In this document: positions 7,372 through 55,540 of the stretch, in pieces | How positions within the stretch are numbered: the stretch's first letter is position 1 | Layout: every line of letters begins with the position of its first letter | From: an uncultured Actinomycetes bacterium | GTDB lineage: Bacteria > Actinomycetota > Actinomycetes > S36-B12 > UBA5976 | Direction of reading: 5' to 3' | Assembly: GCA_903892635.1 (NCBI GenBank) | Contig: CAITJH010000017.1 | Coordinates: 50,909-114,908 of the forward strand | Length of the DNA: 64,000 bases | The notes under the pieces: generated by a model | What the model was told of the DNA's origin: nothing | Database searches by the model: none | The model's input: only the letters and a program-made list of their open reading frames with translations | Translations under genes and position numbers: made by a program

Positions 7372-7560
7372 TTACTTTTGGTCGTCAGTTGACGTCTGTT
7401 CGGCTGTGCCTTCTTTAGCACCGGCATCCAATTCAGACTTAAAAATCCGAATAGATCGACCAACACTTCGAGCAGCATCAGGAAGACGTTTGGCACCAAA
7501 AAGCACAATCACAAGAAGGAGCAGAACTAATGCCATCGGTGAATCAAAAAGTGCTTTCAT
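7372..7560 (-). CDS. tatA: Twin-arginine translocase subunit TatA
   Basis: 62 aa. One N-terminal TM helix, then LFGAKRLPD and an amphipathic helix. GGAG RBS upstream of the ATG. Confidence 0.85.
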
Positions 7561-7609
7561 GACAACTCCTGTAGTCGAGGTGGTTCTAGCCTAACCTATG
7601 TTGAACTTA

Positions 7610-8509
7610 TTACTCGAGCCAACGACTTGCGGCAGAAACGACTAAATCTCTAGCCTCTTCGGGCGAAACTACTGTGATTGCACCGCCAGCAGACAACACC
7701 ACGCTAGCCAACCATTCGAGGTTCGCCACTTTGGTGCTGACTCGAATTCGACGCTCGTCTAACTCGTGAATCGATGAAACAGTATCGTTGTCGAAATCGC
7801 CAAGGAATTCTTTGTCCAGTTCCAGTATGACGTCAATCCACGAAGTTACATCGCGAACAAGCTCTTGATCATTAATGTCGACAACCTGCGGCAAGTCGCT
7901 CAATGACGCTCGCGCAATTCGATCAACTCGAAACGTTCTCATTGCTTCTGCCTCAGTGCACCAGGCACGAACGTAAGTCCGATCGTCACGCGTCAATAGC
8001 CGCTTCGGCTCGATGACACGTTGGGAAGCATTCAACGAACTACCAGACGCATAGGAAATTTCTACTTGGACTTCTGCGTCAATTGCCGACTTGAGAAGTT
8101 GAATGCAGTCATGCTCGCGAACATCCGTAACGATCGAAACCGTAGGCTCTGGATTTAGTGCAGCCGAAATCTTGTCAATAAGAATTGCCACTTCGGTCGA
8201 ATCTGCAAGTGCTGGCATTTGCTCGAGATATGTCAATCCCGCTAGTAACGCCGAAGCCTCTGCGCCCGTCAGTCGAACTGGACGATCAAACTTCTGGGCA
8301 TCCATCACATAAATGCCTTGGTCCGCACCAAAATGAACGTCAACAAGTTCTCCGCCGTACTGCCCTGGTCCGGTGTACTGCAACACATCGAGTAGACGAA
8401 GAACTTCCTTTGCTGAAATTCCAAATTCCTCAGCTACTGTCTCTGGGGGTACACCGGGGTGCGCGACTAACCACGGCAACATCCGGATCAAAAGTTCAAT
8501 GTGATTCAT
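7610..8509 (-). CDS. pafC: WYL-domain transcriptional regulator PafC
   Basis: 299 aa. N-terminal HTH and central WYL-type region (RTYVRAWC). 4-nt overlap with the preceding paralogue. Canonical position between pafB and tatA. Confidence 0.75.
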   Translation of the reverse strand: MNHIELLIRMLPWLVAHPGVPPETVAEEFGISAKEVLRLLDVLQYTGPGQYGGELVDVHFGADQGIYVMDAQKFDRPVRLTGAEASALLAGLTYLEQMPALADSTEVAILIDKISAALNPEPTVSIVTDVREHDCIQLLKSAIDAEVQVEISYASGSSLNASQRVIEPKRLLTRDDRTYVRAWCTEAEAMRTFRVDRIARASLSDLPQVVDINDQELVRDVTSWIDVILELDKEFLGDFDNDTVSSIHELDERRIRVSTKVANLEWLASVVLSAGGAITVVSPEEARDLVVSAASRWLE

Positions 8510-9456
8510 GAATTCACCGCGATAGCTTGGCGTATGTAGTTCGCGATGTCTGCATTAAGTTCACTTGGCGAGACTGATTGGACGTATTGACACACTGCTG
8601 CGACTTCGCGCAAGAGTCGACCTTTATGTCCAAATTCAATAGTGAGTTCATCGTAGGTGTCAGTAGATTCAACAGACTTAGCGCGTAGTCTCAAATTTGA
8701 GCAGGTTCCAGGATCAATCCGAACCACTGCAGTGCTTTTTGCCCCTGGGATTTCACTCCATGATTGCACTAGTTCCGCCAGATCCAAATCGTCAGGCATG
8801 TCGTGAACGCACGAACGATTAGTAACCGAGATCGCGCTGACTATTCGACTAAGTCGAAAAGTTCGTAATGCCTCTCGCTCTTCATCAAAACCAACGAGAT
8901 ACCACGCTCCACCAGTGAGAAGCAGTCTCCATGGTTCCACTACTCGATCACTAACAGTTTGGGAACTTTTACTTTCATAAGCGAAAGTCACAACACGCTT
9001 ATTAGTGATTGCGTCAAACAACTCTGCAACTTTGGTTTGACCTACGCCAATACGCATGTCAGGACCATCGTGCGGTCGAAGGGCCATTGAGCCCATTCGA
9101 TGGGCGGCTTCGCGCGCCACAGAGGTAAGTTGCTGATCTTCCCATGCTGACGCTGCCAAAGTGATCATCAAACGCTCGTCAGCGGTGAGTTTCAAATCAG
9201 GCAAAAGCCACGTTTTGCGATCTAGCCAGTAACCCTGAACATCGTCGTGTACGGCATCGAAGTTTTTCAACTCGATGGGTACACCCATGTCACGTAACGC
9301 ATCTTTATCGCGCTCGAACATACGTTGAAATGCTTCGTCACTGCCTTGGTCGTAGCCAGGAACACGTTGACGAATCTGTTCGCGGGTAATAGGCGTGCTC
9401 GCATTAAGCAAGACGAACAAGACATCCATCAAGCGTTCGGTGCGAGCTGCAGTCAT
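8506..9456 (-). CDS. pafB: WYL-domain transcriptional regulator PafB
   Basis: 316 aa. HTH (RLMDVLFVLLNASTPITREQI) plus WYL region (GAWYLVGFD). First of the pafB-pafC pair downstream of pafA. Confidence 0.75.
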   Translation of the reverse strand: MTAARTERLMDVLFVLLNASTPITREQIRQRVPGYDQGSDEAFQRMFERDKDALRDMGVPIELKNFDAVHDDVQGYWLDRKTWLLPDLKLTADERLMITLAASAWEDQQLTSVAREAAHRMGSMALRPHDGPDMRIGVGQTKVAELFDAITNKRVVTFAYESKSSQTVSDRVVEPWRLLLTGGAWYLVGFDEEREALRTFRLSRIVSAISVTNRSCVHDMPDDLDLAELVQSWSEIPGAKSTAVVRIDPGTCSNLRLRAKSVESTDTYDELTIEFGHKGRLLREVAAVCQYVQSVSPSELNADIANYIRQAIAVNS

Positions 9457-9458
9457 TG

Positions 9459-9818
9459 TTATCCGACAGCGAGCAAGTCAATAACGAAAATGAGGGTCTT
9501 GCCAGACAGTCGATGCCCTGCTCCGGCGGGTCCGTATGCCAAGTGTGGCGGAATGATGAGCTTGCGACGGCCACCGACAGCCATTCCCGGAATGCCCTCT
9601 TGCCAACCGGCAATCAAACCACGCAGCGGAAACTCAATGGACTCTCCACGATCCCACGACGAGTCAAACTGCTCGCCCGAATCAAACTCAACACCGAGAT
9701 AATGCACGGTGACTTTATCGCCAGGAGCAGCAACAGTACCGTCGCCAATCGTGATGTCTTCAATCACGAGTTCAGCAGGAGCTGGACCCTCGTGGAATTC
9801 AATTTCTGGTGCTTCCAT
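9459..9818 (-). CDS. FKBP-type peptidyl-prolyl cis-trans isomerase (cytosolic)
   Basis: 119 aa FKBP_C domain: VHYLGVEFDSGEQFDSSWDRGESIEFPLRGLIAGWQEGIPGMAVGGRRKLIIPPHLAYG. Confidence 0.9.
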   Translation of the reverse strand: MEAPEIEFHEGPAPAELVIEDITIGDGTVAAPGDKVTVHYLGVEFDSGEQFDSSWDRGESIEFPLRGLIAGWQEGIPGMAVGGRRKLIIPPHLAYGPAGAGHRLSGKTLIFVIDLLAVG

Positions 9819-9841
9819 TGTTCCTCTTTAGATGTTGATTG

Positions 9842-10450
9842 TTATTGAACGGACTGTAAATCGACGACGAATACCAAAGCTTCACCGACAGCAATACCAC
9901 TACCATCCGGAGGTGAGTCGCCGTATGCCTGCGATGCTGGAATAACCAGAACGCGTCGACCTCCTTCTTTCATTCCAACAAGTCCTTTTTGCCAACCGAC
10001 AATTACATTGTCCAAGGGAAAAGTGGCTGCTTCATTGCGTGCCCAAGAACTATCAAATTCCTTGCCCGACATTGCTCCGTAACCAACGTAATGGGCAGTC
10101 ACAGTTGAATGAGCTCCAACCGATTTACCGGTTCCAACTTTGACATCCTTAATGATCAACGTGGGCGAAGGCGTCTTCGTGACGTCAATTTTGACAGTCG
10201 GTTCACTGCCTAACTTCCCGCCGATTGTTGCAGGTCCAACTACCAGCCCACCGGCACTTGCAGTCTGTGACACCGTCGGAATCGGTGACGCAACAGCCGA
10301 ATCTGTTGGTAATGGTGTATCCGAGCTTGCTGGAACGTCCATTTCCGGTGACATTGCTGTCGCGCTCGGAACTGGCGATGTAGCGGTCTTTGCCGAGCCA
10401 CATCCGGCTAACATTCCAACAGCCACAAGGGCGATGATTACTTTACGCAT
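9842..10450 (-). CDS. FKBP-type peptidyl-prolyl isomerase, predicted lipoprotein
   Basis: 202 aa. Signal peptide with lipobox (VGMLAGCGS), an S/T/P-rich linker, then an FKBP_C domain ([34 protein letters not shown]). Confidence 0.85.
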
Positions 10451-11831
10451 TCTTCAACTCTACGTCGTCCATGGATTCAATGAGCTTTTCGACGCGCTCA
10501 TCGACATTTGCAAACGGATCTTTGCACAACACAGTGCGCTGGGTTTGATCGTTCATCTTCAAATGAACCCAGTCCACAGAGATGTCTTTGCCTGCAATTT
10601 GCGCAGCTTTGATGAAATCTCCGCGCAATTTTGCGCGGGTGTTTTGTGGTGGGATTGATTTTGCCGCAAAAACTTCAATATCTGTTGAGATTCGATTGAC
10701 CGCGCCAGTACGTTCCATCATGTTGAATAGCCCGCGAGACCTCGACACATCGTGATACATCAAATCAACTTGCGCAATACGTGCTGAATCCAATTCCAAA
10801 TTATGACGCTCTTGATAAGCGGTGATTAGGCGCTTCTTAATAGCCCAATCAATGTCGCGATCAATCAGACCATGATTTCCGGTCTCGACCGCATTCAAAG
10901 TTCGTTCCCACAGCTCTAGCGCCTGACCGTGTGTGGCAGATAGTTCTGAGTCGGACTTTTCGATGTAATCCTTAACCATCGTTAAAAATTCAGTCTGCAA
11001 ATTTAATGCAGTCATCGTTTGCCCACTCGACAAAGTCACCATCGCTTGTCCCGTAAGGTCATGCGATACATCACGAATAGCACGTATTGGATTTTCTAAA
11101 GTGAGATTCTTGCGTAAGGCATTTGCCTCGAGCGCACGCAGAACAAGATCCATAGATGCGACTTTGACCATTGTGGTCAACTCGCACATGTTTGAATCCC
11201 CTACGATGACGTGCAATCGACGGAATGATTCCGCATCAGCATGTGGCTCATCTCGAGTATTGATAATCGGGCGGGATCGAGTCGTTGCGCTTGATACGCC
11301 TTCCCACATGTGATCAGCTCGCTGCGACAGTGCATAAATCGTGCCGCGAGGAGTGGACAAAACTTTGCCAGCTCCGCAAATTAACTGTCGAGTAATTAAA
11401 AAAGGTAATAGCGCCTCAATTTGGTCAAGGTAGTCTGCGCGTCGACGAATGAGGAAATTCTCATGGCAGCCGTACGAATTACCGCCAGAGTCCGTGTTGT
11501 TCTTAAATAAGTGAATTTCGCCTTCGATGCCTTCTTCGGCGAGTCGTAACTGGGCATCCGCGACCAAGCCTTCAACAATTCTTTCGCCAGCACGATCTTG
11601 AATCACAACCTCGCGAATGTCGTCACATTCAGCAGTTGCATACTCTGGGTGACTACCGACATCCAGGTACAGACGCGCTCCGTTGGTTAGAAAGACATTG
11701 CTACTACGTCCCCATGCAACTACACGCCGAAATAAGTAGCGCGCCACTTCGTCCGGCGTCAGTCGACGTTGACCCTCGAAAGCGCAAGTGACACCGTACT
11801 CGGTTTCAATGCCAAAAATACGACGATCCAT
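10443..11831 (-). CDS. pafA: Pup--protein ligase PafA
   Basis: 462 aa. N-terminus is nearly collinear with mycobacterial PafA as I remember it ([59 protein letters not shown]). It lacks the Dop-specific insertion. Lies downstream of pup. Confidence 0.9.
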
Positions 11832-11839
11832 CGGTGGGG

Positions 11840-12022
11840 TTACTCGCCACCCTTTTGCACAAAACTCTTTACAAATTCTTCAGCGTTCTTTTCCAAGACT
11901 CCGTCGATTTCATCAAGCAAATCAGTGATATCAACAGCACTGGTATTGGTTACCGCCGCTACGACTTCTTCGGTCGATTCATTCTGGCTCGTACTCTTGC
12001 TAATAAATTCGCGCTCTGACAT
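11840..12022 (-). CDS. pup: Prokaryotic ubiquitin-like protein Pup (C-terminal GGE)
   Basis: 60 aa from the ATG at 12022, preceded by GAGAGG. The ORF-track start at 12058 adds 12 aa with no RBS. C-terminal half [30 protein letters not shown] matches the Pup consensus. Sits between dop and pafA. Confidence 0.9.
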
Positions 12023-12065
12023 TAGTTCACCTCTCGCTATGAATAGCCTATGCCACAAGCGTTTT

Positions 12066-13568
12066 CTATGCTCCTAGTGCAGCAACAAAGTCTGCAGCAC
12101 TGAGATTCTGATCAAATAACACTCCGGCCGTTTCTCGTGTCCCCCGCCGCGCATCACCAGTGGCAATGCGATGAAGCGGCACTTCTGGACCCAAGTCGAA
12201 AATCACAGAATCCCACGATGCCGCAGCGATTTGTTCGGTATAGGTCTTCATGCACATGCCACGGAAATAGGCACGCGTATCATGTGGAGGATTTGAGATT
12301 GCATGGTTGATTTCGTCGTCACTAAACATGACATCCTGACGCCCCTTACGCTGCATCAGCAATGCCAGACCTTTGTCGGGCCGCAAATCCGAGTACTGGA
12401 TATCAACGGCAGCCAGGCGGGGGTCTTTCCAAGTGCTGTTGTCACGTTGTCGGTAACCCTCGAGAACTGAGTACTTAAGGATCCAGTCCACTTCGTTGGC
12501 AAGAGACATTTTGTTAGTACGTAATGTCGAAATAATGCGCGTCCAGTGATTCAACACATGCATCGTCATGGCATCGCCTGTGCCTGAATCGGCGACATAT
12601 TTTGTTGCTGCCTCAATAAACACTTCTTGAATGTCTAAAGCGCTAATTGTTTTTCCGTTGCGTAATTCCAGAAGTCGCACGAAATCCACGTCGTGACTTA
12701 CTTGATGCATCGCCGAGACTGGATCACGCAGTTCTAGGTCTTGAGTCAGATACCCTGCCTCAATCATGCTGAGCATCAATGAAGTCGTGCCTAATTTGAG
12801 ATACGTCGCCCGTTGCGACATGTTGGCATCACCAACAATGACGTGCAGGCGTCGGAATTCCTCGGGATTTGCATGAGGTTCATCGCGCGTATTAATAATT
12901 GGTCGACGTAACGTTGTTTCGAGTCCAACTTCAGCCTCAAAATAATCAGCTCGCTGTGAAATTTGAAAACCTTCAGTCAGGCTTTCTTGACCTATTCCAA
13001 CCCGACCTGCACCAGCGAATACACATCGTGTGACAAAAAATGGCGTGAGATATTTGACTAGTTGTGCAAATGGTGTCGCACGGTCAACTTGATAATTCTC
13101 ATGCGTTCCATAACTCACCTTGCCATCAGTGTTGTTCTTATAAGCAGTGATCAACTGTCCAGTAAAGGAACTTGCAAGTTGCGCACTGTGCTGCATGATG
13201 CGATCTCCCGCAGCATCCCAAAGAGCCGCATCACGTGGATTGGTGACTTCCGGCGATGAATACTCAGGATGTGCATGATCAACATAGAACCGAGCGCCAT
13301 TGAAAAGTACGAGATTGGCCAGACCATAATCATCGTCAGTCAACTGTGAAGGATCAGCGTCAGCCCTACTCATATCAAAACCACGCGCATCACGCAATGG
13401 CGTCTCTACGTCATAGTCCCAACGCATTCGGCGCGGGCGCTCGGGCATCACTTCTGTGCCATACGCAGTAACTACCTGCGACGACAACAACACGGGATTG
13501 GCCAATGGGTCAGCTAATGCCGAGATCCCATATTCAGTTTCAACACCCATAATGCGGTGTACAGACAT
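12066..13568 (-). CDS. dop: Pup deamidase/depupylase Dop
   Basis: 500 aa PafA paralogue with Dop-type sequence ([53 protein letters not shown]). Lies between arc and pup. Confidence 0.9.
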   Translation of the reverse strand: MSVHRIMGVETEYGISALADPLANPVLLSSQVVTAYGTEVMPERPRRMRWDYDVETPLRDARGFDMSRADADPSQLTDDDYGLANLVLFNGARFYVDHAHPEYSSPEVTNPRDAALWDAAGDRIMQHSAQLASSFTGQLITAYKNNTDGKVSYGTHENYQVDRATPFAQLVKYLTPFFVTRCVFAGAGRVGIGQESLTEGFQISQRADYFEAEVGLETTLRRPIINTRDEPHANPEEFRRLHVIVGDANMSQRATYLKLGTTSLMLSMIEAGYLTQDLELRDPVSAMHQVSHDVDFVRLLELRNGKTISALDIQEVFIEAATKYVADSGTGDAMTMHVLNHWTRIISTLRTNKMSLANEVDWILKYSVLEGYRQRDNSTWKDPRLAAVDIQYSDLRPDKGLALLMQRKGRQDVMFSDDEINHAISNPPHDTRAYFRGMCMKTYTEQIAAASWDSVIFDLGPEVPLHRIATGDARRGTRETAGVLFDQNLSAADFVAALGA

Positions 13569-13581
13569 CGCTTTGCCTTAC

Positions 13582-15222
13582 CTAAACGTATGGATTGGAT
13601 GGAACAGTTGTGTCGATACTTCGACCGGCTTCTACGCCGACAGTTCCGTGCACCAAAGTGCGCATGAATGCAATCCGCTCGCCCTTCTTGCCAGAAATTC
13701 TCGCCCAGTCATCTGGATTAGTTGTATTCGGCAAGTCCTCGTTCTCACGGAATTCGTCGTAGCACGCTGTCATAAGTTGATCTAACGTGATGCCGCGTTG
13801 CCCAGTTTCAAGTTCGGACTTAATCGCTGCCTTTTTTGCTCGCGAAATAATGTTTTCGATCATCGCACCCGACATGAAGTCTTTGAAATACATGATCTCT
13901 TTATCGCCATTGGCATAGGTCACTTCGAGGAATTCATTCTCGGTCGACAATGCATACGTGCGATCGACAATTGAATCGATCATGTGCGTGATCAACGCAG
14001 CGGTATCGCCATTGAACTTCGCCAGTTCAGATGGATGAAGCGGGACATCCTTTGTCAGGTAAATCTTGAAGATGTCGTTTGCTGCAGGACCATCAGGACG
14101 TTCAATCTTGATTTTCACATCAAGTCGACCTGGCCGAAGAATTGCTGGGTCAATCATGTCTTCACGATTCGACGCGCCAATAACGATGACGTTCTCGAGT
14201 GTTTCAACACCGTCAATTTCACTCAACAATTGAGGGACGATTGTATTTTCAACGTCACTTGATACGCCGCTTCCTCGAGTGCGGAACAGCGAATCCATCT
14301 CGTCAAAGAACACGATCACAGGGGTTCCTGCGTTTGCGTGCTCACGTGCCTTTTGGAAGATCACTCGAATCTGTCGCTCGGTTTCACCAACATACTTATT
14401 AAGAAGCTCAGGACCCTTGATGTTGAGGAAGTAACTCTTTCCTTCTCCGACACCACGCATCTCATATGTCTTTTTCGCGAGCGAGTTCGCTACAGCTTTT
14501 GCGATCAATGTCTTGCCACATCCGGGAGGACCATACAGAAGGATTCCTTTTGGTGGCTTGAGTTCGTACTCTTTAAACAACTCTGGATGCAAGAACGGAA
14601 GTTCAACTGAATCGCGAATCATCTGAATCTGTGGAGTAAGACCGCCAATGTCTTCGTACGAGATATCTGGAACTTCTTCGAGTTGTAAGTCTTCGACTTC
14701 TGACTTCGCTATGCGCTCAATGACGTAGCCTGACCGACTGTCACACAAAACAGAATCGCCAGACTTTAAATCAATGTCTACAAGTGGTGCAGCCAAGCGC
14801 ACAACTCGTTCTTCGCTTCCTCGAACGAGCACGAGAGCACGCCGACCGTCTTCAAGCATTTCCTTGAAAATCGCCAACTCACCATGTTCTTCGAAACCAC
14901 AAGCGACAACAACGTTCATCGCTTCGTTCAAAATGACTTCTTGGCCAGCTTCCAAGACGCTCTTATCAATTGATGGAGCAATCGAGACCCGCATCTTTCG
15001 ACCGTTCACAACGACATTCACCATGTCATTAGCTGCAGGGCTGTCATAAATAGCAAAACCATTAGGAGGTCCAGATAAACGCTCAACTTCTTCCTTGAGC
15101 GTGATGAGTTGTTCACGGGCTTCACGAAGAGTCGTTGACAGGCGCTGATTATTAGCACTTAGATCGTTGATTTGCTCGTGCAGCTTCTGCAATTCGACAT
15201 TAGGCGAAGTGCTCTCGGTCAT
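13582..15222 (-). CDS. arc: Proteasome-associated AAA+ ATPase ARC/Mpa
   Basis: 546 aa. N-terminal coiled coil, OB region, and an AAA+ module with Walker A GPPGCGKT and Walker [11 protein letters not shown]-terminus is ...[12 protein letters not shown] overlap with trmI. Confidence 0.9.
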
Positions 15223-16115
15223 GGCGTTGCCTCCTCGTTTGACCCTAATGCTTCAAGTCCCTCAATCGCACCTTTGGCAGGTCGAATTCGTCGAGGTGGA
15301 AGTACAGTTCCCGGCGCCAAACGGCGAGTCTGAATCAGAAAACCAGTGTGTCCCTGCATTCGATGATTTGGACGAACCGCGAGCCCTTCGACGTGCCACG
15401 GTCGTTGGATCAACTCTTGTGCTTCAGGATCTGTCCAGCGCTTGTCCTTTCGTAAGTTCTCAACCATGTTGGACATTTGGGTCGTCGTTGCTACGTAGGC
15501 AATCAGAACACCACCAGGGCGAATGACAGGTGCCAACGATTCAATACATTCCCACGGAGCCAGCATGTCCAGCACCACCCGATCAACGGATCCTTCAGGA
15601 AGATTGACGACCTCATCCTGCAAGTCACCAATTGTTACTGACCAATTCGCTGGAGTTTCTCCAAAGAAATTAGTGATGTTCTTCGTTGCAATCTTGGCGA
15701 AGTCTTCACGGCGCTCATAGCTATGAACTGTGCCATGCTCCCCTACTGCCCGAATCAACGAGCAAGTAAGTGCACCAGAACCAACACCTGCCTCAACGAC
15801 CGTTGCTCCGGGATACACATCTGCGAAGCCAACAATGGCTGCGGCGTCCTTGGGATAGACAACTGCTGCGCCTCGAGGCATGGACAGCACAAAGTCGGTA
15901 AGCAAAGGTCGTAGCGCTAGGTACACCATGTTTCCCGTCGAAGTAACAGTACAGCCTTCGAACTGGCCAATGATGTCGTCATGCGGAATGCTGCCATGGT
16001 TAGTAAAGAAACTGTTTCCACGTTGCAACACGATGGTGTGTTTGCGAGCCTTTACATCAGTTAATTGGACACGATCGCCCTCGGTGAATACACCAGTGAC
16101 ATTGCGGGCAACCAT
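15219..16115 (-). CDS. trmI: tRNA (adenine(58)-N1)-methyltransferase TrmI
   Basis: GERVQLTD-like N-terminus (EGDRVQLTD) and SAM-binding [13 protein letters not shown] place the start at ATG 16115 because AAGGAG lies 4 nt upstream. The ORF-track start at 16181 adds 22 aa. Confidence 0.85.
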
Positions 16116-16228
16116 GAGGCTCCTTTGTTTCATCGCTATTGTCCTTACATTCTCGCAGGTTTGCCTCGAATGACTCACCACCGCATTGCTAAACTCTGGT
16201 TAACCGCACAAATTTCAGCCAAGGAGTC

Positions 16229-17074
16229 TTGTTGACATCGCTCTCCGGTTTCCCTCGAAACTGCAATGTGATCATCGCAGCATTTGCTGGGTGGAACGAT
16301 GCCGCACAATCCGCAACTGATGCGCTAGAAGTCCTACTTGAACTATGGGATGCCGAAGAAGTCGCTGAGCTCAACGGCGACGACTACTACGACTACCAAT
16401 TCAATCGACCCGAAGTGAGCATCGATATCGACGGCGCCCGCCACATTGAATGGCCGAGCACGACGGTGTATCGCGCAAATTCTCAAACAATTCCTGGGAC
16501 AAACATTGTGCTTGTGCTTGGAGTCGAGCCCAGCATGAAGTGGAAAACGTTCTGCCAAGAAATCCTGAAACACACGCCAACCAATGTTCCAACCGTTCTT
16601 GTAACTCTGGGCGCACTTCTAGCTGACGTACCGCACACGCGACCAATTCCAGTTAATGGAACTACTGCGAATTCCGAACTTCAAGAAATTACTGGCTTCG
16701 AGGTGTCACGCTACGAAGGCCCAACGGGAATTCTCGGTATTTTGCAGACCGAAGCTGAAGCACAGGGCATCTCTGGAATGTCGCTCTGGGCTGCGGTTCC
16801 TCATTACGTTGCTGCTCCACCATGTCCAAAGGCAACACTTGCGCTACTTCGTTCAATCGAAGACCTTCTTGATGTTGCAATCCCAATCGATGACCTTGTG
16901 GAAGATGCTCGCGCCTGGCACACCGGTGTTGAGGAAATGACATCAGACGACGAAGAGATTGCAGATTACGTTCGTAATCTCGAAGAGTCTCAAGATACTG
17001 CCGAACTGCCCGAAGCTTCAGGCGAAGCAATTGCAAAAGAATTTGAGCGTTACTTACGTCGTCGCGAACATTAA
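16229..17074 (+). CDS. PAC2 (proteasome assembly chaperone-like) family protein
   Basis: 281 aa. N-terminus (VIIAAFAGWNDAAQSATDALE) and acidic C-terminal tail are typical of actinobacterial PAC2-family proteins found near arc. AAGGAG at 16221-16226 favours the second TTG, at 16232. Confidence 0.7.
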   Translation: MLTSLSGFPRNCNVIIAAFAGWNDAAQSATDALEVLLELWDAEEVAELNGDDYYDYQFNRPEVSIDIDGARHIEWPSTTVYRANSQTIPGTNIVLVLGVEPSMKWKTFCQEILKHTPTNVPTVLVTLGALLADVPHTRPIPVNGTTANSELQEITGFEVSRYEGPTGILGILQTEAEAQGISGMSLWAAVPHYVAAPPCPKATLALLRSIEDLLDVAIPIDDLVEDARAWHTGVEEMTSDDEEIADYVRNLEESQDTAELPEASGEAIAKEFERYLRRREH

Positions 17075-18699
17075 CGGTGCGAACGGTACCAATCAATCGC
17101 TGAGGCCGTGGCTGCATCAAATCCACTTGTTGAATCGTGATTGCTCAGAAACGGCGCAATAGTTGTAGCCATTTCTTTTCCAAGTTCAACGCCCCATTGA
17201 TCAAATGAGTTGATTCCCCAGACAACACCTTGCACGAATGTCATGTGTTCATACATGGCTACGAGTGCACCTAAGACATAAGGATCTAAACACTCGATCA
17301 TGATGACGTTCGTTGGACGATTACCTGGCATTACCTTGTGATCGACAAGCTCTGGAGCAACTCCGGATGAAACAACTTCTTCTCGAGTTCGGCCAAATGC
17401 AAATACTCGTGCCTGACCAATCGCATTACTCACTAGGACATCATGGTGAGCGCCAATCGGATTGAGTGACTTGCCTGTGAAAATCACATCACAAGCCACA
17501 ACTGATGTGCCTTGATGCAGTAACTGAAAGAAGGAATGTTGACCGTTCGTGCCCGGCTCTCCCCAGTAAATGGCGCCGGTATCGCATCCAACAGCCGAGC
17601 CATCCAGACGCACACTCTTACCGTTGCTTTCCATAACCAGCTGCTGAAGGTAGGCAGGAAATCGCTTTAAGTATTGGTCATAAGGTAGCACAGCCACACT
17701 CGGAATGTTCAAGAACGAACGATTCCAGACACCGAGTAGACCAAGAAGTACTGGCACATTCTTTTCTAACGGTGTTGTGGCAAAGTGTTGATCCATTGCA
17801 TGAAACCCTGCCAACATCTGATCAAATGCCTCTGGGCCAATCGCGATCATTGTCGACAGTCCGATGGCTGAATCCATGGAATACCGTCCACCGACCCAAT
17901 CCCAAAATCCGAACATATTTGCCGGATCAATTCCGAATTCAGTGACAAGCTCTTCATGCGTCGACACTGCGACGAAATGTTTTGCGATAGAACTTTCGGC
18001 ACGATCTGGTACTACTTGAAGAAGTGCCTCACGCGCAGTCTTGGCATTCATCATTGTTTCTTGAGTCGTGAAAGTTTTGCTTGCAATGATAAAGAGTGTT
18101 TCTAGTGGGTCAACAACTCTTAAAACTTCCGCAATGTCAGTGCTATCAACATTGCTCACAAAATGGAATGACATGTCGCGCTGTGAAAAGTGACGCAACG
18201 CTTCGTAAGCCATCACAGGTCCTAAATCCGAACCGCCAATACCGATATTGACGACGTGTCGAATTCGTTTACCCGTCGCACCAAGCCATTGCCCGTCACG
18301 TACTGCCCGAGCTAGAGCAGCCATGCGGTCGCGCACTTCGTACACATGCTCAACGATGTCGATACCGTCGACAAGCAAAGTTGATGACCGAGGCAAGCGC
18401 AGCGCAGTGTGAAGCACGGCTCGATTTTCAGTGCTATTGATGTGCGAGCCACCAAGCATGCGATCACGAATAGCTTCTAGCCCAGATTCTCGCGCAATAG
18501 TCATTAGTTCTGTGAGCACGTCTTCGTCAATACGCTGACGGCTGTAGTCAAAGGTGATGCCGGCAGCAGTTGCATGAAATGAACTGCGATCCGACTCAAA
18601 CAAATCACGAATGTGAATGCTGGCCCATAACTGCGCTTTCCGAGCGAGTTGTTCCCACGCAGGAGTACCAACAGCACCGTGCTGTGTCATTAGTACCAC
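17071..18699 (-). CDS. pgi: Glucose-6-phosphate isomerase
   Basis: 542 aa. PGI signatures NIGIGGSDLGP, FDQWGVELGK and SNGKSV. Confidence 0.9.
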   Translation of the reverse strand: MVLMTQHGAVGTPAWEQLARKAQLWASIHIRDLFESDRSSFHATAAGITFDYSRQRIDEDVLTELMTIARESGLEAIRDRMLGGSHINSTENRAVLHTALRLPRSSTLLVDGIDIVEHVYEVRDRMAALARAVRDGQWLGATGKRIRHVVNIGIGGSDLGPVMAYEALRHFSQRDMSFHFVSNVDSTDIAEVLRVVDPLETLFIIASKTFTTQETMMNAKTAREALLQVVPDRAESSIAKHFVAVSTHEELVTEFGIDPANMFGFWDWVGGRYSMDSAIGLSTMIAIGPEAFDQMLAGFHAMDQHFATTPLEKNVPVLLGLLGVWNRSFLNIPSVAVLPYDQYLKRFPAYLQQLVMESNGKSVRLDGSAVGCDTGAIYWGEPGTNGQHSFFQLLHQGTSVVACDVIFTGKSLNPIGAHHDVLVSNAIGQARVFAFGRTREEVVSSGVAPELVDHKVMPGNRPTNVIMIECLDPYVLGALVAMYEHMTFVQGVVWGINSFDQWGVELGKEMATTIAPFLSNHDSTSGFDAATASAIDWYRSHR

Positions 18700-18758
18700 C
18701 TCGCTTTAACCCTCACCGATAACATAAAGGATATACGTTGCAATCAAGGGAGCACTCG

Positions 18759-19805
18759 GTGGCTAGCACTTCTCAGATCACACACATCGGCATGGTGGGC
18801 TTGGGGCGCATGGGGGCTAACTTGGTTCGCCGAATCAGCGACGCCTCAATATCCGCTGTTGCTTATGACGCACAACCTGATGTTGCATCGGAGTTAGCCC
18901 GCGAAAACCCGACATTCATCAGTTCAGCGGCCTCAATCGACGATTTGATAAGTCAACTTCCGGCTCCTCGAGCCATCTGGATCATGGTGCCAGCCGGAGC
19001 CATCACCGAATCTGTGGTGGATGAATTGGTCAGCAAACTCTCCCCTGGCGACATCATCATTGATGGCGGAAACTCGTATTACCGAGACGATCTTCGCCAT
19101 AGTGCAAGTGCGGCACTCAAGGGCATCCACTTCTTAGATGTAGGAACCAGTGGCGGTGTTTGGGGTCGTGAGCGTGGTTATTGCCTCATGATCGGCGGCG
19201 ATAGTCAGGCAGTTTCTAGCCTCACCGCAATCTGGGATGCAGTATCCCCTGGCTTTGAAGCGGCTCCACGCACTCCCAATCGAACTGGCGAGACAACAAC
19301 TGACGAACGTGGCTGGTTGCATTGCGGTCCATCTGGTGCCGGACACTTCGTCAAGATGGTTCACAACGGAATTGAATATGGATTGATGGCTGCTTACGCC
19401 GAGGGTCTCAATATTTTGAAATCCGCCGACGAAGGACTCAAGCCTCGGTCAGCCGATGCCGAAACAGCGCCACTCGCCCACCCAGAGCATTACCAATACG
19501 AATTTGATGTTCCCGCAATAACCGAACTGTGGCGTCGAGGAAGTGTTGTCTCCTCGTGGTTGCTCGATCTCACAGCAATCGCATTGCATGATTCACCAAA
19601 TCTCGATGAATTCAGTGGTCGCGTATCTGACTCTGGCGAAGGTCGATGGACTGCGATTGCTGCCATCGAAGAAGGCGTTCCAGCTCCGGTATTAACGGCA
19701 GCAGTATTTTCACGATTTGAATCACGCAGTCGTTCCGAGTTTGCCAACAAAGTACTGTCAGCCATGCGCAAGCAGTTTGGCGGACATCACGAAAAGAAGG
19801 ACTAG
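18759..19805 (+). CDS. gnd: 6-phosphogluconate dehydrogenase, decarboxylating (short Gnd/YqeC-like type)
   Basis: Rossmann motif GMVGLGRMGANL and KMVHNGIEYG. ORF track starts at TTG 18738. I prefer GTG 18759, which lies 6 nt after AAGGGAG. Confidence 0.8.
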   Translation: MASTSQITHIGMVGLGRMGANLVRRISDASISAVAYDAQPDVASELARENPTFISSAASIDDLISQLPAPRAIWIMVPAGAITESVVDELVSKLSPGDIIIDGGNSYYRDDLRHSASAALKGIHFLDVGTSGGVWGRERGYCLMIGGDSQAVSSLTAIWDAVSPGFEAAPRTPNRTGETTTDERGWLHCGPSGAGHFVKMVHNGIEYGLMAAYAEGLNILKSADEGLKPRSADAETAPLAHPEHYQYEFDVPAITELWRRGSVVSSWLLDLTAIALHDSPNLDEFSGRVSDSGEGRWTAIAAIEEGVPAPVLTAAVFSRFESRSRSEFANKVLSAMRKQFGGHHEKKD

Positions 19806-26548: not shown

Positions 26549-26632
26549 GTCCGGGTGGCGGAATAGGCAGACGCGCTAGCTTGAGGTGCTAGTCCCCTCA
26601 CGGGGATGGGGGTTCAAGTCCCCCCTCGGACA
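26549..26632 (+). tRNA. tRNA-Leu (anticodon GAG), type II with long variable arm, no encoded CCA
   Basis: Folded by hand. Acceptor GTCCGGG/CTCGGAC; 3-bp D stem; anticodon stem CTAGC/GCTAG with loop TTGAGGT; variable arm CCCC-TCA-GGGG; T arm GGGGG-TTCAAGT-CCCCC; discriminator A. Confidence 0.9.
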
Positions 26633-26635
26633 CTA

Positions 26636-30261: not shown

Positions 30262-30996
30262 TTAGGACTTACTTTTCGCGGTAGGTAATGCGACTTTGGA
30301 ACATGATCGCTTCTTCAGCACTGAAATCATTGTGGCTTTTTCACTGGGAGTCACCCAAAGATGGTATTTGCGTTTCACTGCTACTTGTCGTGCAACATAA
30401 GCACATTGATACGACACTCGAGGAGGTAGCCAAGCCGACGCGTCGGAATCTGATTTTTGATCGTTCAAGGAAGAGCTAACCGCAATAAGTTCTAGTGGAT
30501 CATTAGCAAGTTCGACTCGGGTTGCATAAGGCAAAGACTGAGCGCCCGTGACCCATGCATTCGACAACGCAACGACGTGATCAATTTGAATTGCAGTAGA
30601 CATTGGACATGTTCCAAAAGTACAGGTTTCAGCAAAAGTTGTACGTTTACCTGAATAAGGATCGGTAAAGACTCCGCCAATAACTCGACAACGAGAACTA
30701 CTCATCACTACTTTTTTCAAATCTCGCCTCAAAATGTCATTGCGAGTATCACAACCATTTCCATCGAGATCTTTCCATCTGCCACCGAACTGATCTCGGG
30801 AATAGCCATCGTGAGCGGCCCATCCGGCAACTGGCAATTGTTTTGCCGCTTTCAAGGCTTTGCTGATTTGTGTTCGAGTACTTACGGACGTGGATTCGTG
30901 TGAATGCGCAGAACTAACAGGTGTAGCGGTGAGAGCGGCGATTGCCACACCAAAGCTGAGGACTACAACGCTTGTACGTGCCATTTGTTCAATCAC
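30262..30996 (-). CDS. Secreted HNH-type nuclease, DUF1524 (GmrSD C-terminal domain) family
   Basis: 244 aa. Signal peptide (VVVLSFGVAIAALTATPVSSAHS), GNGCDTRNDILRRDL, IQIDHVVALSNAW and NDQKSDSDASAWLPP. Confidence 0.7.
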   Translation of the reverse strand: MIEQMARTSVVVLSFGVAIAALTATPVSSAHSHESTSVSTRTQISKALKAAKQLPVAGWAAHDGYSRDQFGGRWKDLDGNGCDTRNDILRRDLKKVVMSSSRCRVIGGVFTDPYSGKRTTFAETCTFGTCPMSTAIQIDHVVALSNAWVTGAQSLPYATRVELANDPLELIAVSSSLNDQKSDSDASAWLPPRVSYQCAYVARQVAVKRKYHLWVTPSEKATMISVLKKRSCSKVALPTAKSKS

Positions 30997-36490: not shown

Positions 36491-37978
36491 GTGGTGCTCA
36501 TGTCTACGCATTTGCCCGATTATCTCGCCGAGTCAGCCCTCAATCTTGCAAGTGACGCAGGGGCAAGTGTCGCGCACTTTCGAATTGCACAACATGACAG
36601 TCGTGGAGTTTCGACTCGTGATGGCAATGTTGAAAATGTCGCGTCTGATTCCACTTCGGGATTGAGCGTTCGCGTAGTACTCAATGGCGCTTGGGGATTT
36701 GCGGCCACGAATGAACTGACCGAGCAGGGTGCGGCTCACGCTACACAGCGCGCACTCGACATGGCGCGGATCAGTGCACTTGTCATGAAGGAACCTGTTG
36801 AGCTCGCCGATGAACCTTCCTATGGAACCGCATCGTGGGTCATGCCTAAAGAAATAGATGCGATGGCAGTTTCTGACGACGACGTGGTTGCTTTGCTCCA
36901 GGAATGGAATTCGCGAGTATCACGATCGTCAGTAGTCAATCACGTAGACGCACATGCGGCTATGGGACGTGACACAACCTTTTTTGCCGACTTGAACGGA
37001 AGTCGCCTGACACAAGAGCGCGACCGAATCAGCGCACAACTCACGGCAATTCACATCGGAGAAGGCGGCTTCGACGACATGAGAACCTGCGCTCCGCCTG
37101 CTGGCCGCGGTTGGGAGTATCTCCTTGGTCATGGCTGGGACTGGGACAACGAACTTACTCAACTTCCAGACTTCTTGGAAGAAAAAGTAAAGTCTCCGTC
37201 TGTTGAAGCTGGAACTTGGGATCTCGTTATTGATCCAACGAATTTGTGGCTCACCATTCATGAGTCAATTGGGCATGCAACAGAACTAGATCGTGCCCTG
37301 GGATACGAAGCTAACTACGCCGGCACTTCGTTCGCAACATTAGAAAAATTGGGAAACTTCGCCTATGGCAGTCCGTTGGTAAATGTCACCGGAGATCGAA
37401 ATGCAGCCCACGGATTATCAACGGTTGCGTGGGATGACGAAGGCGTTGCAGCTCAAGAATGGGACTTAATCAAGGACGGAATATTGGTCGGCTACCAAAC
37501 TGATCGAAGCATCGCAGCGCGAGTAGGGCTCGAACGATCGAATGGCTGTGCATTTGCGGATTCTGCATTGCACTCGCCAATCCAGCGCATGCCTAATGTT
37601 TCACTTCGACCTGGACAAGTCGAACGGACAACAAATGACCTTATATCTGGAGTCGAACGAGGAATTTACATCGTTGGCGACAAATCGTGGTCGATTGACA
37701 TGCAACGGTACAACTTCCAATTCACTGGTCAGCGGTTTTACGAGATTAACAACGGCAAAATCGTTGGTCAACTTAAAGACGTGGTTTATCAATCACGCAC
37801 TCCAGATTTTTGGGGCTCACTTGTCGACATTGGTGGACCATCGACCTACCTCCTCGGAGGCGCACTGAACTGCGGAAAAGGTCAACCAGGACAAGTAGCT
37901 CCAGTAAGTCACGGTTGTCCAAGCGCGGTATTTGCCAACATCAATGTCCTTAATGGACGTAAGGAGGCAAGCGCATGA
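36491..37978 (+). CDS. tldD: TldD family metalloprotease
   Basis: 495 aa. HExxxH-type motif (HESIGHATELD) and the glycine-rich C-terminus of the TldD/PmbA fold. Alternative ATG at 36500. Confidence 0.8.
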   Translation: MVLMSTHLPDYLAESALNLASDAGASVAHFRIAQHDSRGVSTRDGNVENVASDSTSGLSVRVVLNGAWGFAATNELTEQGAAHATQRALDMARISALVMKEPVELADEPSYGTASWVMPKEIDAMAVSDDDVVALLQEWNSRVSRSSVVNHVDAHAAMGRDTTFFADLNGSRLTQERDRISAQLTAIHIGEGGFDDMRTCAPPAGRGWEYLLGHGWDWDNELTQLPDFLEEKVKSPSVEAGTWDLVIDPTNLWLTIHESIGHATELDRALGYEANYAGTSFATLEKLGNFAYGSPLVNVTGDRNAAHGLSTVAWDDEGVAAQEWDLIKDGILVGYQTDRSIAARVGLERSNGCAFADSALHSPIQRMPNVSLRPGQVERTTNDLISGVERGIYIVGDKSWSIDMQRYNFQFTGQRFYEINNGKIVGQLKDVVYQSRTPDFWGSLVDIGGPSTYLLGGALNCGKGQPGQVAPVSHGCPSAVFANINVLNGRKEASA

Positions 37979-39342
37979 GCGACATGACAATGGCACAAGC
38001 AGTCGAGATTGCAATGGAGCTTGTTGGACAAGGCGTAGTTGTCGGCGAAGTGAATTCGGCGCGTAACTTGCGGTGGGCCAATTCAGCGCTTACTACCAAT
38101 GGCGACACCATCGACCAGTCTCTCTCAATCGCAGCATTTGTCGATACAACTGAAGGCGTGGCCAGTGGCATCTCAAGTGGGCAAGTTCGAACGCGTGATG
38201 ACATCGTTGCGCTCGTAGAAGCAAGTAAGGCAAGCGCTCGAGCTGCTGGTGCAGCCCAAGATGCAATGGAATTGGTCGCAGGTCCAGTACACGATGATTT
38301 CGCCTTAGCGGCTCCTGCAGTCGTTAACGATGGTCTTGCTGAGCTTGCGCCACAACTTGGGGACGCATTTTCGCAAGGTGAATTCTTTGGATACGCAGAG
38401 CACTCCCAAGACACGATGTACGTCGCCACATCAGCGGGAACTCGCATGCGATTTTCGCAAGCTACATCTCGATTTGAGTTATGCGCAAAGAGCGTTGAAC
38501 GCGATCGTTCTGCATGGAGTGGGCAATCTGGAACAACACTGACTGATGTGTCTGTTGCCGAACATGCTCTCACCGTGCTTCGTGGCTTGGAACATCAAAA
38601 AAATCGAATCGAGCATGACCCCGGTCAACACACAGTGACACTGTCATCGAGTGCCATGGCTGACTTAATGATTTACCTGCTGTGGAGTGCAACAGCCCGA
38701 GAGGCTCACGAAGGACGCAGCGTATTTAGCAATCCAATGGGTGGAACCCGTATCGGTGAACAACTCTCCAAGCGCAAAATTACGATCGCCACAGATCCTC
38801 GACTTCGCGGACTTGAAACCTATGACCACGTTGTCAATCTTGGATCGTCATCAATGTCGAGTTCATTCGATACTGGGCTTGCAATCCCCCGCGCTGAAAT
38901 TATTCGAGATGGACAACTTGAATCTCTAGGAAGTAGCCGCCAAGCTGCAGCCGAAGCAGGTCTGCCATTCACTCCACTGAGCGACAACATCGATGTGCAT
39001 GACAAAGCCGGACACGGATCCCTCGATGAACTAGCGGCACGAATGCACGATGGCTTGTTGATTACGTGCCTGTGGTACATCCGAGAAGTAGATCCACAAT
39101 CACTACTTCTCACCGGCCTAACTCGAGATGGCGTTTACGTAGTCAAGAACGGTGAAATTATCGGTGCGGCAAATAATTTCCGCTTCAATGAATCTCCAGT
39201 TGGGATTTTGTCACGCATTACCGATGCTGGCGATTCAGTTAATTGTCTGCCGCGTGAATGGGCTGATTGGTTCGCACGTGCTCGAGTCTGCCCCGTCACA
39301 ATCGATCAGTTCAACCTCTCGACACGATCGGACGCCGTGTAG
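37975..39342 (+). CDS. pmbA: TldE/PmbA family protein (partner of TldD)
   Basis: 455-aa paralogue of the upstream gene that lacks the HExxxH motif. ATGA overlap with tldD. Confidence 0.75.
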   Translation: MSDMTMAQAVEIAMELVGQGVVVGEVNSARNLRWANSALTTNGDTIDQSLSIAAFVDTTEGVASGISSGQVRTRDDIVALVEASKASARAAGAAQDAMELVAGPVHDDFALAAPAVVNDGLAELAPQLGDAFSQGEFFGYAEHSQDTMYVATSAGTRMRFSQATSRFELCAKSVERDRSAWSGQSGTTLTDVSVAEHALTVLRGLEHQKNRIEHDPGQHTVTLSSSAMADLMIYLLWSATAREAHEGRSVFSNPMGGTRIGEQLSKRKITIATDPRLRGLETYDHVVNLGSSSMSSSFDTGLAIPRAEIIRDGQLESLGSSRQAAAEAGLPFTPLSDNIDVHDKAGHGSLDELAARMHDGLLITCLWYIREVDPQSLLLTGLTRDGVYVVKNGEIIGAANNFRFNESPVGILSRITDAGDSVNCLPREWADWFARARVCPVTIDQFNLSTRSDAV

Positions 39343-51431: not shown

Positions 51432-52363
51432 TGTACGAAGGGATCTAATCCCACCGCAAGAAATAACAGTGCAAGGTAACTGATGGAGAAATGAAAGAGT
51501 CGCATCGGAGCTAAGTCGCTGAGTTCCTTACGAACGCGGGTGCGAAGTGCATATGCTTCCCAGATAAAAGCAGCACCGAGGATGATGCTGGCTCCTGAAT
51601 ACAACCAACCTGTATGCGCCACAGGAATGAGCGCTAACGAAGTGAGCACCATAAGCCACGAGTAAAAAATAATGTGGCGAGTCACAGTCATAGGTTCTTC
51701 TTCGACCGGAAGCATCGGCACGCCAGCTCGTGCGTAGTCTTCCTTGTACCGCAATGACAATGGCCAGTAATGCGGTGGCGTCCAAAAGAAAACGATGAGA
51801 AACAAAATGACCGGAGCCCAGTCGAGCGAGTTACGAACGGCAGACCAACCAATGAGTACTGGCATGCATCCTGCTGCGCCACCCCACACAATGTTTTGGC
51901 TAGTGCGACGCTTCAAGATCAACGTATATCCGAACACATAAAAAATAATTGCCAAACCAGCTAATTGAGCCGACAATGCGTTCACCGTAATGAAAAGCAC
52001 CGAGATTGAGAGCAGAGACAGCACTATGCCAAAAATAATTGTGTTGCGTCCGGAAATCTGACCTGTAGCCGACGGACGATGCATTGTGCGATGCATTAAA
52101 GCATCAATATCTCGATCGATAAAACAATTCAGGACATTTGCTCCACCAGCGGCAAGCGTGCCGCCAACTAGTGTCCAGCAGACAGTGGCTAGATCTGGAA
52201 ATCCATTCGCCGCCAAGAACATGGTCGGAATCGTGGTCACTAAGAGAAGCTCAATAATGCGCGGTTTTGTCAGAGCCAAATACGCTCGCCACGTAGCAAG
52301 AGGTTTCACCTCGGCTGGCACGGAAACTGACACAACGGCAAGCCTACCTGCGCCCAGCGCCAT
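51428..52363 (-). CDS. ctaB: Protohaem IX farnesyltransferase (haem O synthase)
   Basis: UbiA-family motifs (YLALTKPRIIELLL, NCFIDRDID). I prefer the ATG at 52363. The ORF-track start at 52429 would overlap the tkt start. Confidence 0.85.
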   Translation of the reverse strand: MALGAGRLAVVSVSVPAEVKPLATWRAYLALTKPRIIELLLVTTIPTMFLAANGFPDLATVCWTLVGGTLAAGGANVLNCFIDRDIDALMHRTMHRPSATGQISGRNTIIFGIVLSLLSISVLFITVNALSAQLAGLAIIFYVFGYTLILKRRTSQNIVWGGAAGCMPVLIGWSAVRNSLDWAPVILFLIVFFWTPPHYWPLSLRYKEDYARAGVPMLPVEEEPMTVTRHIIFYSWLMVLTSLALIPVAHTGWLYSGASIILGAAFIWEAYALRTRVRKELSDLAPMRLFHFSISYLALLFLAVGLDPFVH

Positions 52364-52394
52364 AGCGCGTTGGGCACTAGATACGATTAATAAT

Positions 52395-54443: not shown

Positions 54444-55540
54444 TGAGCGTTCTTGATGAACTCAGCCAGATAGGCGTTTCGATTTGGCTCGATGACCTCG
54501 ATCGTCATCGTATTGAATCGGGAAATTTAGCGAACCTCATTGCTTCTCACTGCGTCGTAGGTGTGACAACAAATCCCAGTATTTTCGAAAAGGCCCTGAC
54601 CTCTGGTGTTGCCGAATACGCGCCACAGCTTGCGCAGCTCAAAGGAAGCGATGTCGACACAGCTGTCAAAGCACTAACGATTCACGATGTGCAAGCTGCT
54701 TGCGATATTTTTCATGAGACATGGGTGAACAGCAATGGTGTTGACGGTCGAGTCTCACTAGAAGTTGACCCTCGTCTGGCTCACGACACTAAGGCAACCA
54801 TCGCTCAGGCGCGTGAACTATGGGCAGCAGTTGATCGCAAGAACTTGATGATCAAAATTCCTGCAACTCTCGCGGGCGTGCCTGCGATCACTCAAGTCAT
54901 CGGTAGCGGAATCAGCGTCAACGTCACATTGATCTTTTCAGTTGAGCGCTATCGCGATGTCATGAATGCTTGGCTTGAGGGCCTTGAATTAGCGCAATCA
55001 AATGGGCATGACTTAGCCACAATCGAATCGGTCGCTTCATTTTTCGTTTCACGAGTCGATGCGCAGGTTGATAAAGAACTTGACGCTCTTGGAACACAAC
55101 AAGCACAATCACTTCGCGGCAAAGCAGCAATTGCAAATGCTCAACTAGCATGGGCCGCCTTTGTTGACACAACACAACAGTCACGCTGGACGGCTTTAAG
55201 TGAGCAAGGTGCCCATGTGCAGCGCCCGCTGTGGGCATCAACCGGTGTCAAAGATCCGACTTACGACGACACTCGGTATGTCATCGAACTCGCGGCACCA
55301 GGATGTGTCAACACCATGCCCGAATCTACATTGAATGCTGTCGCCGATCATGGAGTATCCCGAGGTGACACAGTCACGGGAAGCGCCATTTCTGCTCAAC
55401 AAGTGTGGGACGAATTAGCGACTATTGGCATCGATCGAATTGCTATATGTGAGCATCTTGAAAAAGACGGTGTTGCGAAATTCATCGATGCTTGGAATCA
55501 ACTTCTTACTTCCTTGTCAGAAACGTTGGCCGAGATCTAG
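54443..55540 (+). CDS. tal: Transaldolase (long actinobacterial type)
   Basis: 365 aa from ATG 54443, which overlaps the tkt stop as TAATG. Motifs VTTNPSIF and MIKIPAT (Schiff-base Lys). Confidence 0.9.

Follow-up and report, generated by a model that had tools for sequence, protein, structure and literature searches.

A probable proteasome-free pupylation locus in a clade of uncultured freshwater actinobacteria

Some actinobacteria, such as the corynebacteria, carry the genes of the pupylation system without prcB and prcA (prcBA), the genes of the 20S proteasome core, and their absence, for example in Corynebacterium glutamicum and M. luteus, is viewed as a likely secondary loss (PMC8223512). 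In C. glutamicum, the unfoldase ARC takes apart pupylated ferritin, with the release of iron and without degradation (PMC8223512, PMC12288473). The signature of proteasome-free genomes is a pup gene that directly precedes pafA (PMC3511204). The pupylation locus considered here occupies approximately 7.6-17.1 kb of a 64-kb stretch of DNA (the window, i.e. the whole stretch that was analysed; G+C about 50%) and has this layout. Its host clade is a group of uncultured freshwater actinobacteria in or near Nanopelagicales, and a literature search on pupylation or the proteasome in Nanopelagicales or Planktophila found nothing relevant. The locus probably encodes a complete and functional pupylation system that is devoid of the 20S core, in the proteasome-free configuration known from C. 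glutamicum.

The genes arc, dop, pup and pafA follow one another without interruption on the minus strand. The first of them, arc (13582-15222), encodes an AAA+ unfoldase of the Mpa/ARC family (546 residues; TIGR03689, 789 bits), and dop (12066-13568) encodes a full-length depupylase/deamidase (500 residues; TIGR03688, 650 bits, matching profile positions 2-483 of 485). They are followed by pup (11840-12022), the product of which has 60 residues (66 bits with both PF05639 and TIGR03687), and by pafA (10443-11831), encoding the Pup ligase (462 residues; TIGR03686, 713 bits). All four proteins score well above the cut-offs of their NCBIfam equivalog models, which also served to assign Dop (cut-off 492) and PafA (cut-off 551). 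ARC contains the OB and AAA domains according to Pfam, its Walker A (GPPGCGKT), Walker B (VFFDEMD), pore loop (KYVGE) and beta-grasp hairpin (ANGDK, residues 437-441) motifs are intact, and it matches Mpa of Mycobacterium tuberculosis (PDB 7PX9) with 738 bits. The start of pup is most likely the ATG at 12022, since a Shine-Dalgarno-like site, GAGAGGTGA, precedes it; gene callers also placed the start there on identical contigs. The predicted protein ends in ...SFVQKGGE and is thus of the PupE form. Between the end of the pup stop codon at 11840 and the pafA ATG at 11831 there is a spacer of only 8 nt (11832-11839), in the slot that is filled in relatives by prcB-prcA (approximately 1.5 kb).

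No genes of the 20S core were detected in the window. The best hit in a tblastn search with eight PrcA and PrcB proteins from prcBA-bearing relatives, verified as PF00227 members, had an E-value of 0.08. Profile hidden Markov models (HMMs) of PrcA and PrcB, each built from 65-66 sequences and giving 1e-123 to 1e-129 with the positive control, yielded a best E-value of 0.85 when all filters were disabled and the complete set of 824 six-frame segments of the window was searched. Pfam scans of ARC, Pup, PafB, PafC, the PAC2-family protein and 40 further open reading frames (ORFs) of at least 150 residues revealed no PF00227 match, and the other ORFs of the window have ordinary core-genome functions (helY, tatC, an mshC-like gene, the SUF operon, ctaA/ctaB, tkt-tal-zwf-opcA). 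The 20S genes were also not found in the flanks of nine related prcBA-less loci (L004-L009, L084-L086). These results bear out several statements of an earlier note on this DNA, namely that arc, dop, pup and pafA adjoin one another with an 8-nt gap between the last two, that Pup ends in FVQKGGE while a full-length Dop is kept, that prcB-prcA is missing between pup and pafA, and that no ORF of the window resembles a 20S subunit.

The same pup-pafA junction occurs on independent lake-metagenome contigs with an identical PafA (L001-L003), therefore the absence of prcBA is not peculiar to one assembly. Among the matches listed in a scan of GTDB-representative genomes, none has an identical PafA, and the best are "Actinomycetes bacterium ELA592" (85% identity) and several metagenome-assembled genomes (MAGs) named "Candidatus Nanopelagicales bacterium" (74-76%). 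ARC, Dop, Pup, PrcB, PrcA and PafA were mapped on each fetched relative locus, and pup was found to abut pafA in all ten sampled species-level lineages (the window and the nine loci mentioned above), with a spacer of 10-15 nt in the six closest relatives and of 0-21 nt over the prcBA-less relatives. In the other loci, the interval is approximately 1.5 kb or more and contains PF00227 genes; prcB-prcA is present in every outgroup locus that shows the stretch upstream of pafA, including four Nanopelagicales MAGs (L024, L031, L056 and L060). In a neighbour-joining tree of PafA with 116 taxa (81 in an earlier version), the ten prcBA-less lineages were monophyletic in 200 of 200 bootstraps.

A search with ARC of a large protein collection gave 120 close homologues, nearly all from freshwater metagenomes, and the genomic context was checked for four representatives picked by their C-terminal tail. 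The three with PQYL, SPYL and NHYL tails have pup directly before pafA and share the PAC2-pgi-6PGD-mshC synteny of the window; the fourth, which has a GQYL tail and is located on a 1.68-Mb contig of 71% G+C, carries prcB-prcA. The simplest history, which is largely demonstrated by these data, is that the ancestor of the clade lost prcBA once, by a clean deletion, and this loss is apparently independent of the known ones. Across the clade, identity to the window is 72-85% for PafA and 68-80% for ARC compared with 62-65% for PGI; since PafA and ARC are better conserved than PGI, the pupylation system is evidently maintained by selection.

Further evidence comes from the parts of ARC that would contact the 20S core. 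TGQYL ends every visible ARC C-terminus in prcBA-bearing loci (about 50, from several orders), whereas the window ARC ends in ...TTVPSNPYV. Its last four codons, AAT CCA TAC GTT (13585-13596, minus strand), encode N-P-Y-V at the position of the GQYL docking motif; Tyr alone is kept there, with Gly, Gln and Leu each exchanged for another residue. ARC never ends in GQYL in the prcBA-less clade, where the tails NPYV, NPFA, NPFN, NHYL/NHYI/HNYL, [STP]QYL, SPYL and GNSF were observed. NPFA is the most frequent of the two tails counted among the 120 ARC clusters (66, against 17 with NPYV, the window included) and is found in 65 of the 116 aligned prcBA-less clusters, and each of these two tails is fixed within its own subclade while the preceding residues change. 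The penultimate Tyr is replaced by Phe in most sister lineages and in the majority of clusters. The alignment of ARC C-termini with and without a proteasome, which had been proposed in the earlier note, thus gave TGQYL in all prcBA-bearing loci with a visible C-terminus and an altered tail in all prcBA-less ones; the observation of that note that the penultimate Tyr is kept as in GQYL stands, and an aromatic residue is present at this position clade-wide, but the GQYL motif itself is not retained.

The second contact is the hairpin. In Mpa, ANGDK (residues 501-505) forms a second contact with the 20S core, in which D504 and K505 touch the H0 helices of the alpha-ring (PMC8755798), and the register of the corresponding residues 437-441 of the window ARC was confirmed by alignment with Mpa. 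The GDK part is invariant in all 73 ARCs from loci outside the prcBA-less clade, and Asp is changed to Glu in 20 of 116 prcBA-less clusters in an alignment-based extraction, although these counts are phylogenetically non-independent.

Altogether, the ARC tail is relaxed but not neutral. Simple decay was rejected as a complete account of it on the basis of the conserved penultimate aromatic residue, and a constraint by the ribosome-binding site of dop was rejected as well, because the 13-nt spacer after the arc stop codon puts this site outside the tail codons.

Judged from these sequence comparisons, prcBA was very probably lost rather than relocated, because two separate 20S-contact elements are relaxed only in the lineages with a prcBA-less locus. 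Several points weigh against this conclusion. The absence of 20S genes was observed within 64 kb and is extrapolated to the rest of the genome. The tail is not decaying neutrally: among 27 non-redundant proteasome-less ARCs (less than 92% identity), all have a penultimate aromatic residue (Tyr in 16, Phe in 11), the last residue is almost always Val, Leu, Ala or Ile, and the tail is of constant length apart from one case that is a residue shorter. Some members of the clade still end in xQYL or NHYL, and the hairpin of the window ARC is the same as that of M. tuberculosis Mpa. All these points could be accommodated if prcB-prcA had merely moved, so that the 20S core would be encoded elsewhere, ARC would dock to it via the aromatic tail and the hairpin, and the locus would represent a simple rearrangement; moreover, the function of Mpa reportedly does not depend on the glutamine of its docking tail (PMC12288473). 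Such a relocation is nevertheless improbable. It would not relax the constraint on the docking tail, which is TGQYL in all of the approximately 50 prcBA-bearing ARCs and altered in every prcBA-less lineage, mostly with Phe for the key Tyr, and it would not account for the variation at the position of D504 being confined to the prcBA-less clade. In addition, surveys treat a pup gene directly before pafA as a signature of genomes lacking the 20S core (PMC3511204).

A relocated prcBA was also sought in metagenomes. A scan with a PrcA alignment found no orphan prcBA among the 80 metagenomic prcA loci listed, which are a sample of such loci. In all listed loci with enough upstream DNA, dop, and pup where detectable, adjoin prcB-prcA, and none of the 80 has the composition or the PafA identity of the clade. 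Two listed loci have a G+C content near 0.52, but their own PafA is 60-62% identical to that of the window, compared with at least 72% within the clade, therefore both are outside it. Thus, the suggestion of the earlier note that this lineage is a proteasome-free pupylator is upheld in that prcBA is gone from its slot clade-wide, the 20S contacts are relaxed and no orphan prcBA was listed; the genome-wide part of the suggestion is an extrapolation from these results.

In the history favoured here, prcB-prcA were deleted from between pup and pafA, and the docking tail of ARC then drifted from GQYL to xQYL, NHYL, NPYV or NPFA. In the likely mechanism of the present lineage, Pup would be made in a ligation-ready form ending in Glu, and PafA would attach it to lysines of target proteins. 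ARC may then bind Pup, thread it through its pore and unfold or disassemble the tagged protein or complex without degradation, and Dop may take Pup off and recycle it, with the depupylase role being the only one left to it in this lineage. With prcB and prcA absent and TGQYL replaced by SNPYV, the pathway should therefore be unable to end in 20S degradation. The non-degradative unfold-and-release role of ARC is suggested here by analogy with the disassembly of ferritin in C. glutamicum.

Another explanation might be that the 20S core is gone and that the tail, in its N-P/H-aromatic-hydrophobic form, docks a different ring-shaped partner, a peptidase or a chaperone. This would agree with the conservation of the tail, in both its penultimate Tyr or Phe and its length, compared with the linker before it, the three residues of which rank with the most variable positions in ARC, and with the prevalence of NPFA and NPYV among the clusters. 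Such a partner is, however, improbable. The tails vary by subclade (YL, YV, FA, FN, and GNSF with a terminal Phe), which is a better fit to gradual drift under a weak intramolecular constraint than to a specific code for docking. The most economical explanation of the conserved aromatic residue is that it serves an intramolecular role in ARC, because the C-termini of Mpa in the free state fold back into the ring (PMC8755798, PMC12288473), and this orientation could explain structurally why an aromatic residue is kept there (PMC8755798). The conserved neighbourhood encodes no candidate partner, and its PAC2 gene is there regardless of prcBA. In a wider form, in which N-[PH]-[YF]-[VALI] is kept for any non-PrcAB partner, be it a ring peptidase, a chaperone or a highly divergent homologue of the proteasome from another part of the genome, the proposal is likewise unlikely; if true, it would define a new ARC-partner machine. 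Finally, it is very improbable that the pupylation genes are a decaying, functionless relic of the proteasome loss, as might be supposed from the missing partner protease and from the genome streamlining that is common in freshwater actinobacteria, because none of the four genes is truncated, their catalytic motifs are intact, their products are 68-85% identical across ten lineages, above PGI, and a streamlined genome would delete useless genes.

The C-terminus of Pup was compared over the same loci. In the proteasome-less clade, GGE was found only in the window and in one relative (L004), while seven of the nine prcBA-less relatives with a visible pup have GGQ (L005-L008, L084-L086); GGE is also present in prcBA-bearing genomes (Klenkia, Cellulosimicrobium and locus L087). 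The idea that GGE arose in adaptation to the loss of the proteasome was therefore rejected. Since most clade members have GGQ and prcBA-bearing genomes may have GGE, the latter is a late single-nucleotide change (within window positions 11840-11845) unrelated to the loss. As this change from Gln to Glu occurred within the clade, the deamidase role of Dop would have become dispensable only in the GGE sub-lineage, after the proteasome had been lost. That Dop is left with the depupylase role only in PupE organisms has already been described (PMC3511204).

Downstream of pafA, the minus strand encodes two FKBP-type peptidyl-prolyl isomerases, the first of which (9842-10450; PF00254) has a lipoprotein-like N-terminus and overlaps the 3' end of pafA by 8 nt, while the second (9459-9818) has 119 residues. 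This tandem pair between pafA and pafB (9459-10450) is kept in Nanopelagicales-like relatives both with and without prcBA (L004-L014, L084-L086), and the loci of Geodermatophilaceae and Pseudonocardiaceae are without it at this position. The pair is followed by the genes of the WYL-domain regulator PafB (8506-9456, minus strand; PF13280, PF25583) and of PafC with HTH_PafC, WYL and WCX domains (7610-8509, minus strand; PF19187, PF13280, PF25583). In Geodermatophilaceae, the interval from pup to pafA is 2.5-3.6 kb instead of 1.5 kb, with extra ORFs between pup and prcB; such long intervals were seen in loci of Klenkia marina (L015), Blastococcus and Geodermatophilus, and the extra ORF of K. marina (7463-8227 of its locus) encodes a Cys-rich, HNH- or zinc-finger-like product.

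On the other side of the locus, a gene of a TrmI-like tRNA methyltransferase (15219-16181, minus strand; PF14801 and PF08704 on an identical contig) is located directly upstream of arc, a synteny common to relatives. Divergent from it is a PAC2-family gene (16229-17074, plus strand; PF09754, 190 bits), which is flanked by pgi and a gene of a 6PGD-like dehydrogenase (17071-19805); the tkt-tal-zwf-opcA cluster (52086-57974) is 35 kb away. The order PAC2-pgi-6PGD-mshC-DUF3090-His_Phos_1 is preserved throughout the proteasome-less clade.

The PAC2 protein (281 residues) is of the Rv2125 type: its residues 14-258 match PDB 3MNF (263 bits) and 5UN0, which is Rv2125 (239 bits), and it is farther from the Rv2714/Cgl1923 type, although Cgl1923 is a protein of C. 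glutamicum, which has no proteasome. It does not notably differ from the Rv2125-type proteins 5UN0 and 3MNF, and it occurs independently of prcBA. The archaeal proteins PbaA and PbaB have a C-terminal HbYX motif, whereas the window protein ends in ...YLRRREH without it and is thereby set apart from the proteasome assembly chaperones proper (archaeal PbaA/PbaB, eukaryotic PAC1/PAC2). Rv2125 is presumably located near mpa in M. tuberculosis, in agreement with the position of the window gene near arc and trmI. Bai and colleagues (2017) reportedly found that Rv2125 neither binds the 20S core nor is needed for proteasome function. The comparison of PAC2 presence with and without a proteasome, also proposed in the earlier note, showed PAC2 in both groups: loci without prcBA (the window, L008, L084-L086) have the gene at the same position as loci that bear prcBA (L020, L024, L031, L056). 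No relative has a shortened copy, and the identity is 58-68% within the proteasome-less clade compared with 62-65% for PGI. Being of the Rv2125 type, syntenic and conserved regardless of prcBA, it is a conserved neighbour, and the view of PAC2 as a relic of proteasome assembly was rejected, as a protein of this type is equally conserved with and without prcBA. The earlier note had therefore placed the gene correctly, but the puzzle it saw in a PAC2 gene without a proteasome does not arise.

Elsewhere in the window, an ORF of 312 residues (58723-59661, plus strand) encodes a protein with a PF04674 domain (Phi_1, phosphate-induced protein 1/EXORDIUM-like; 96 bits), a family best known from plants. 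The product of another ORF (30262-30996, minus strand; 244 residues) has a GmrSD_C domain (DUF1524-type HNH nuclease) without the N-terminal DUF262 part of GmrSD, and a gene pair of TldD/PmbA-family metallopeptidases (36491-39342, plus strand) has ends overlapping by 4 nt. Of the 32 2-kb segments, 30 have a negative GC skew, the cumulative skew falling from -0.07 to -1.77 nearly without interruption, and the minus strand carries about two thirds of the ORFs with 150 or more residues. The consistently negative skew and the excess of minus-strand ORFs suggest that the window is part of a single replichore throughout, the given plus strand being the lagging one. A scan for tRNA and rRNA genes found tRNA-Leu(GAG) (26549-26633) as the sole tRNA and no rRNA in the 64 kb.

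These data add a clade-wide loss of the 20S core genes from the Pup locus in abundant, uncultured and probably genome-streamlined freshwater actinobacteria. Since the genes kept by such genomes are likely to be useful, the fact that pup, pafA, dop and arc persist in the absence of a protease supports a degradation-independent function of pupylation and ARC, such as regulated unfolding or disassembly. The graded series of tails (GQYL, xQYL, NHYL, NPYV, NPFA) could help to separate the residues that serve the 20S core from those that serve ARC itself. Another point is that automatic annotation misleads in prcBA-less genomes with names such as "proteasome ATPase" or "proteasome assembly chaperone".

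In comparison with the canonical Pup-proteasome systems of Mycobacterium, Streptomyces, Rhodococcus and the four Nanopelagicales MAGs mentioned above, the window has orthologous arc, dop, pup, pafA and pafBC genes, conserves the ARC-binding region of Pup and the motor elements of ARC, and shares the trmI flank and, with some of these loci, the PAC2 gene of the Rv2125 type; it differs in the absence of prcB and prcA and in the replacement of TGQYL by SNPYV. With C. glutamicum (Kueberl et al. 2014, 2016, as described in PMC8223512 and PMC12288473), the window shares the order arc-dop-pup-pafA without prcBA in the locus, the retention of ARC and Dop, a Pup ending in GGE, an ARC without GQYL, and pafB-pafC and tatA-tatC downstream. 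Unlike C. glutamicum ARC, which has IDGSV in the hairpin, the window ARC has ANGDK, identical to Mpa (PMC8755798), and is about as Mpa-like as the ARCs of proteasome-bearing species. ARC of its clade keeps the penultimate aromatic residue, and PupQ (GGQ) predominates in the clade, in contrast to the GGE of C. glutamicum. Thus, the configuration is the known Corynebacterium type, and what is new is its occurrence in a different, uncultured freshwater lineage.

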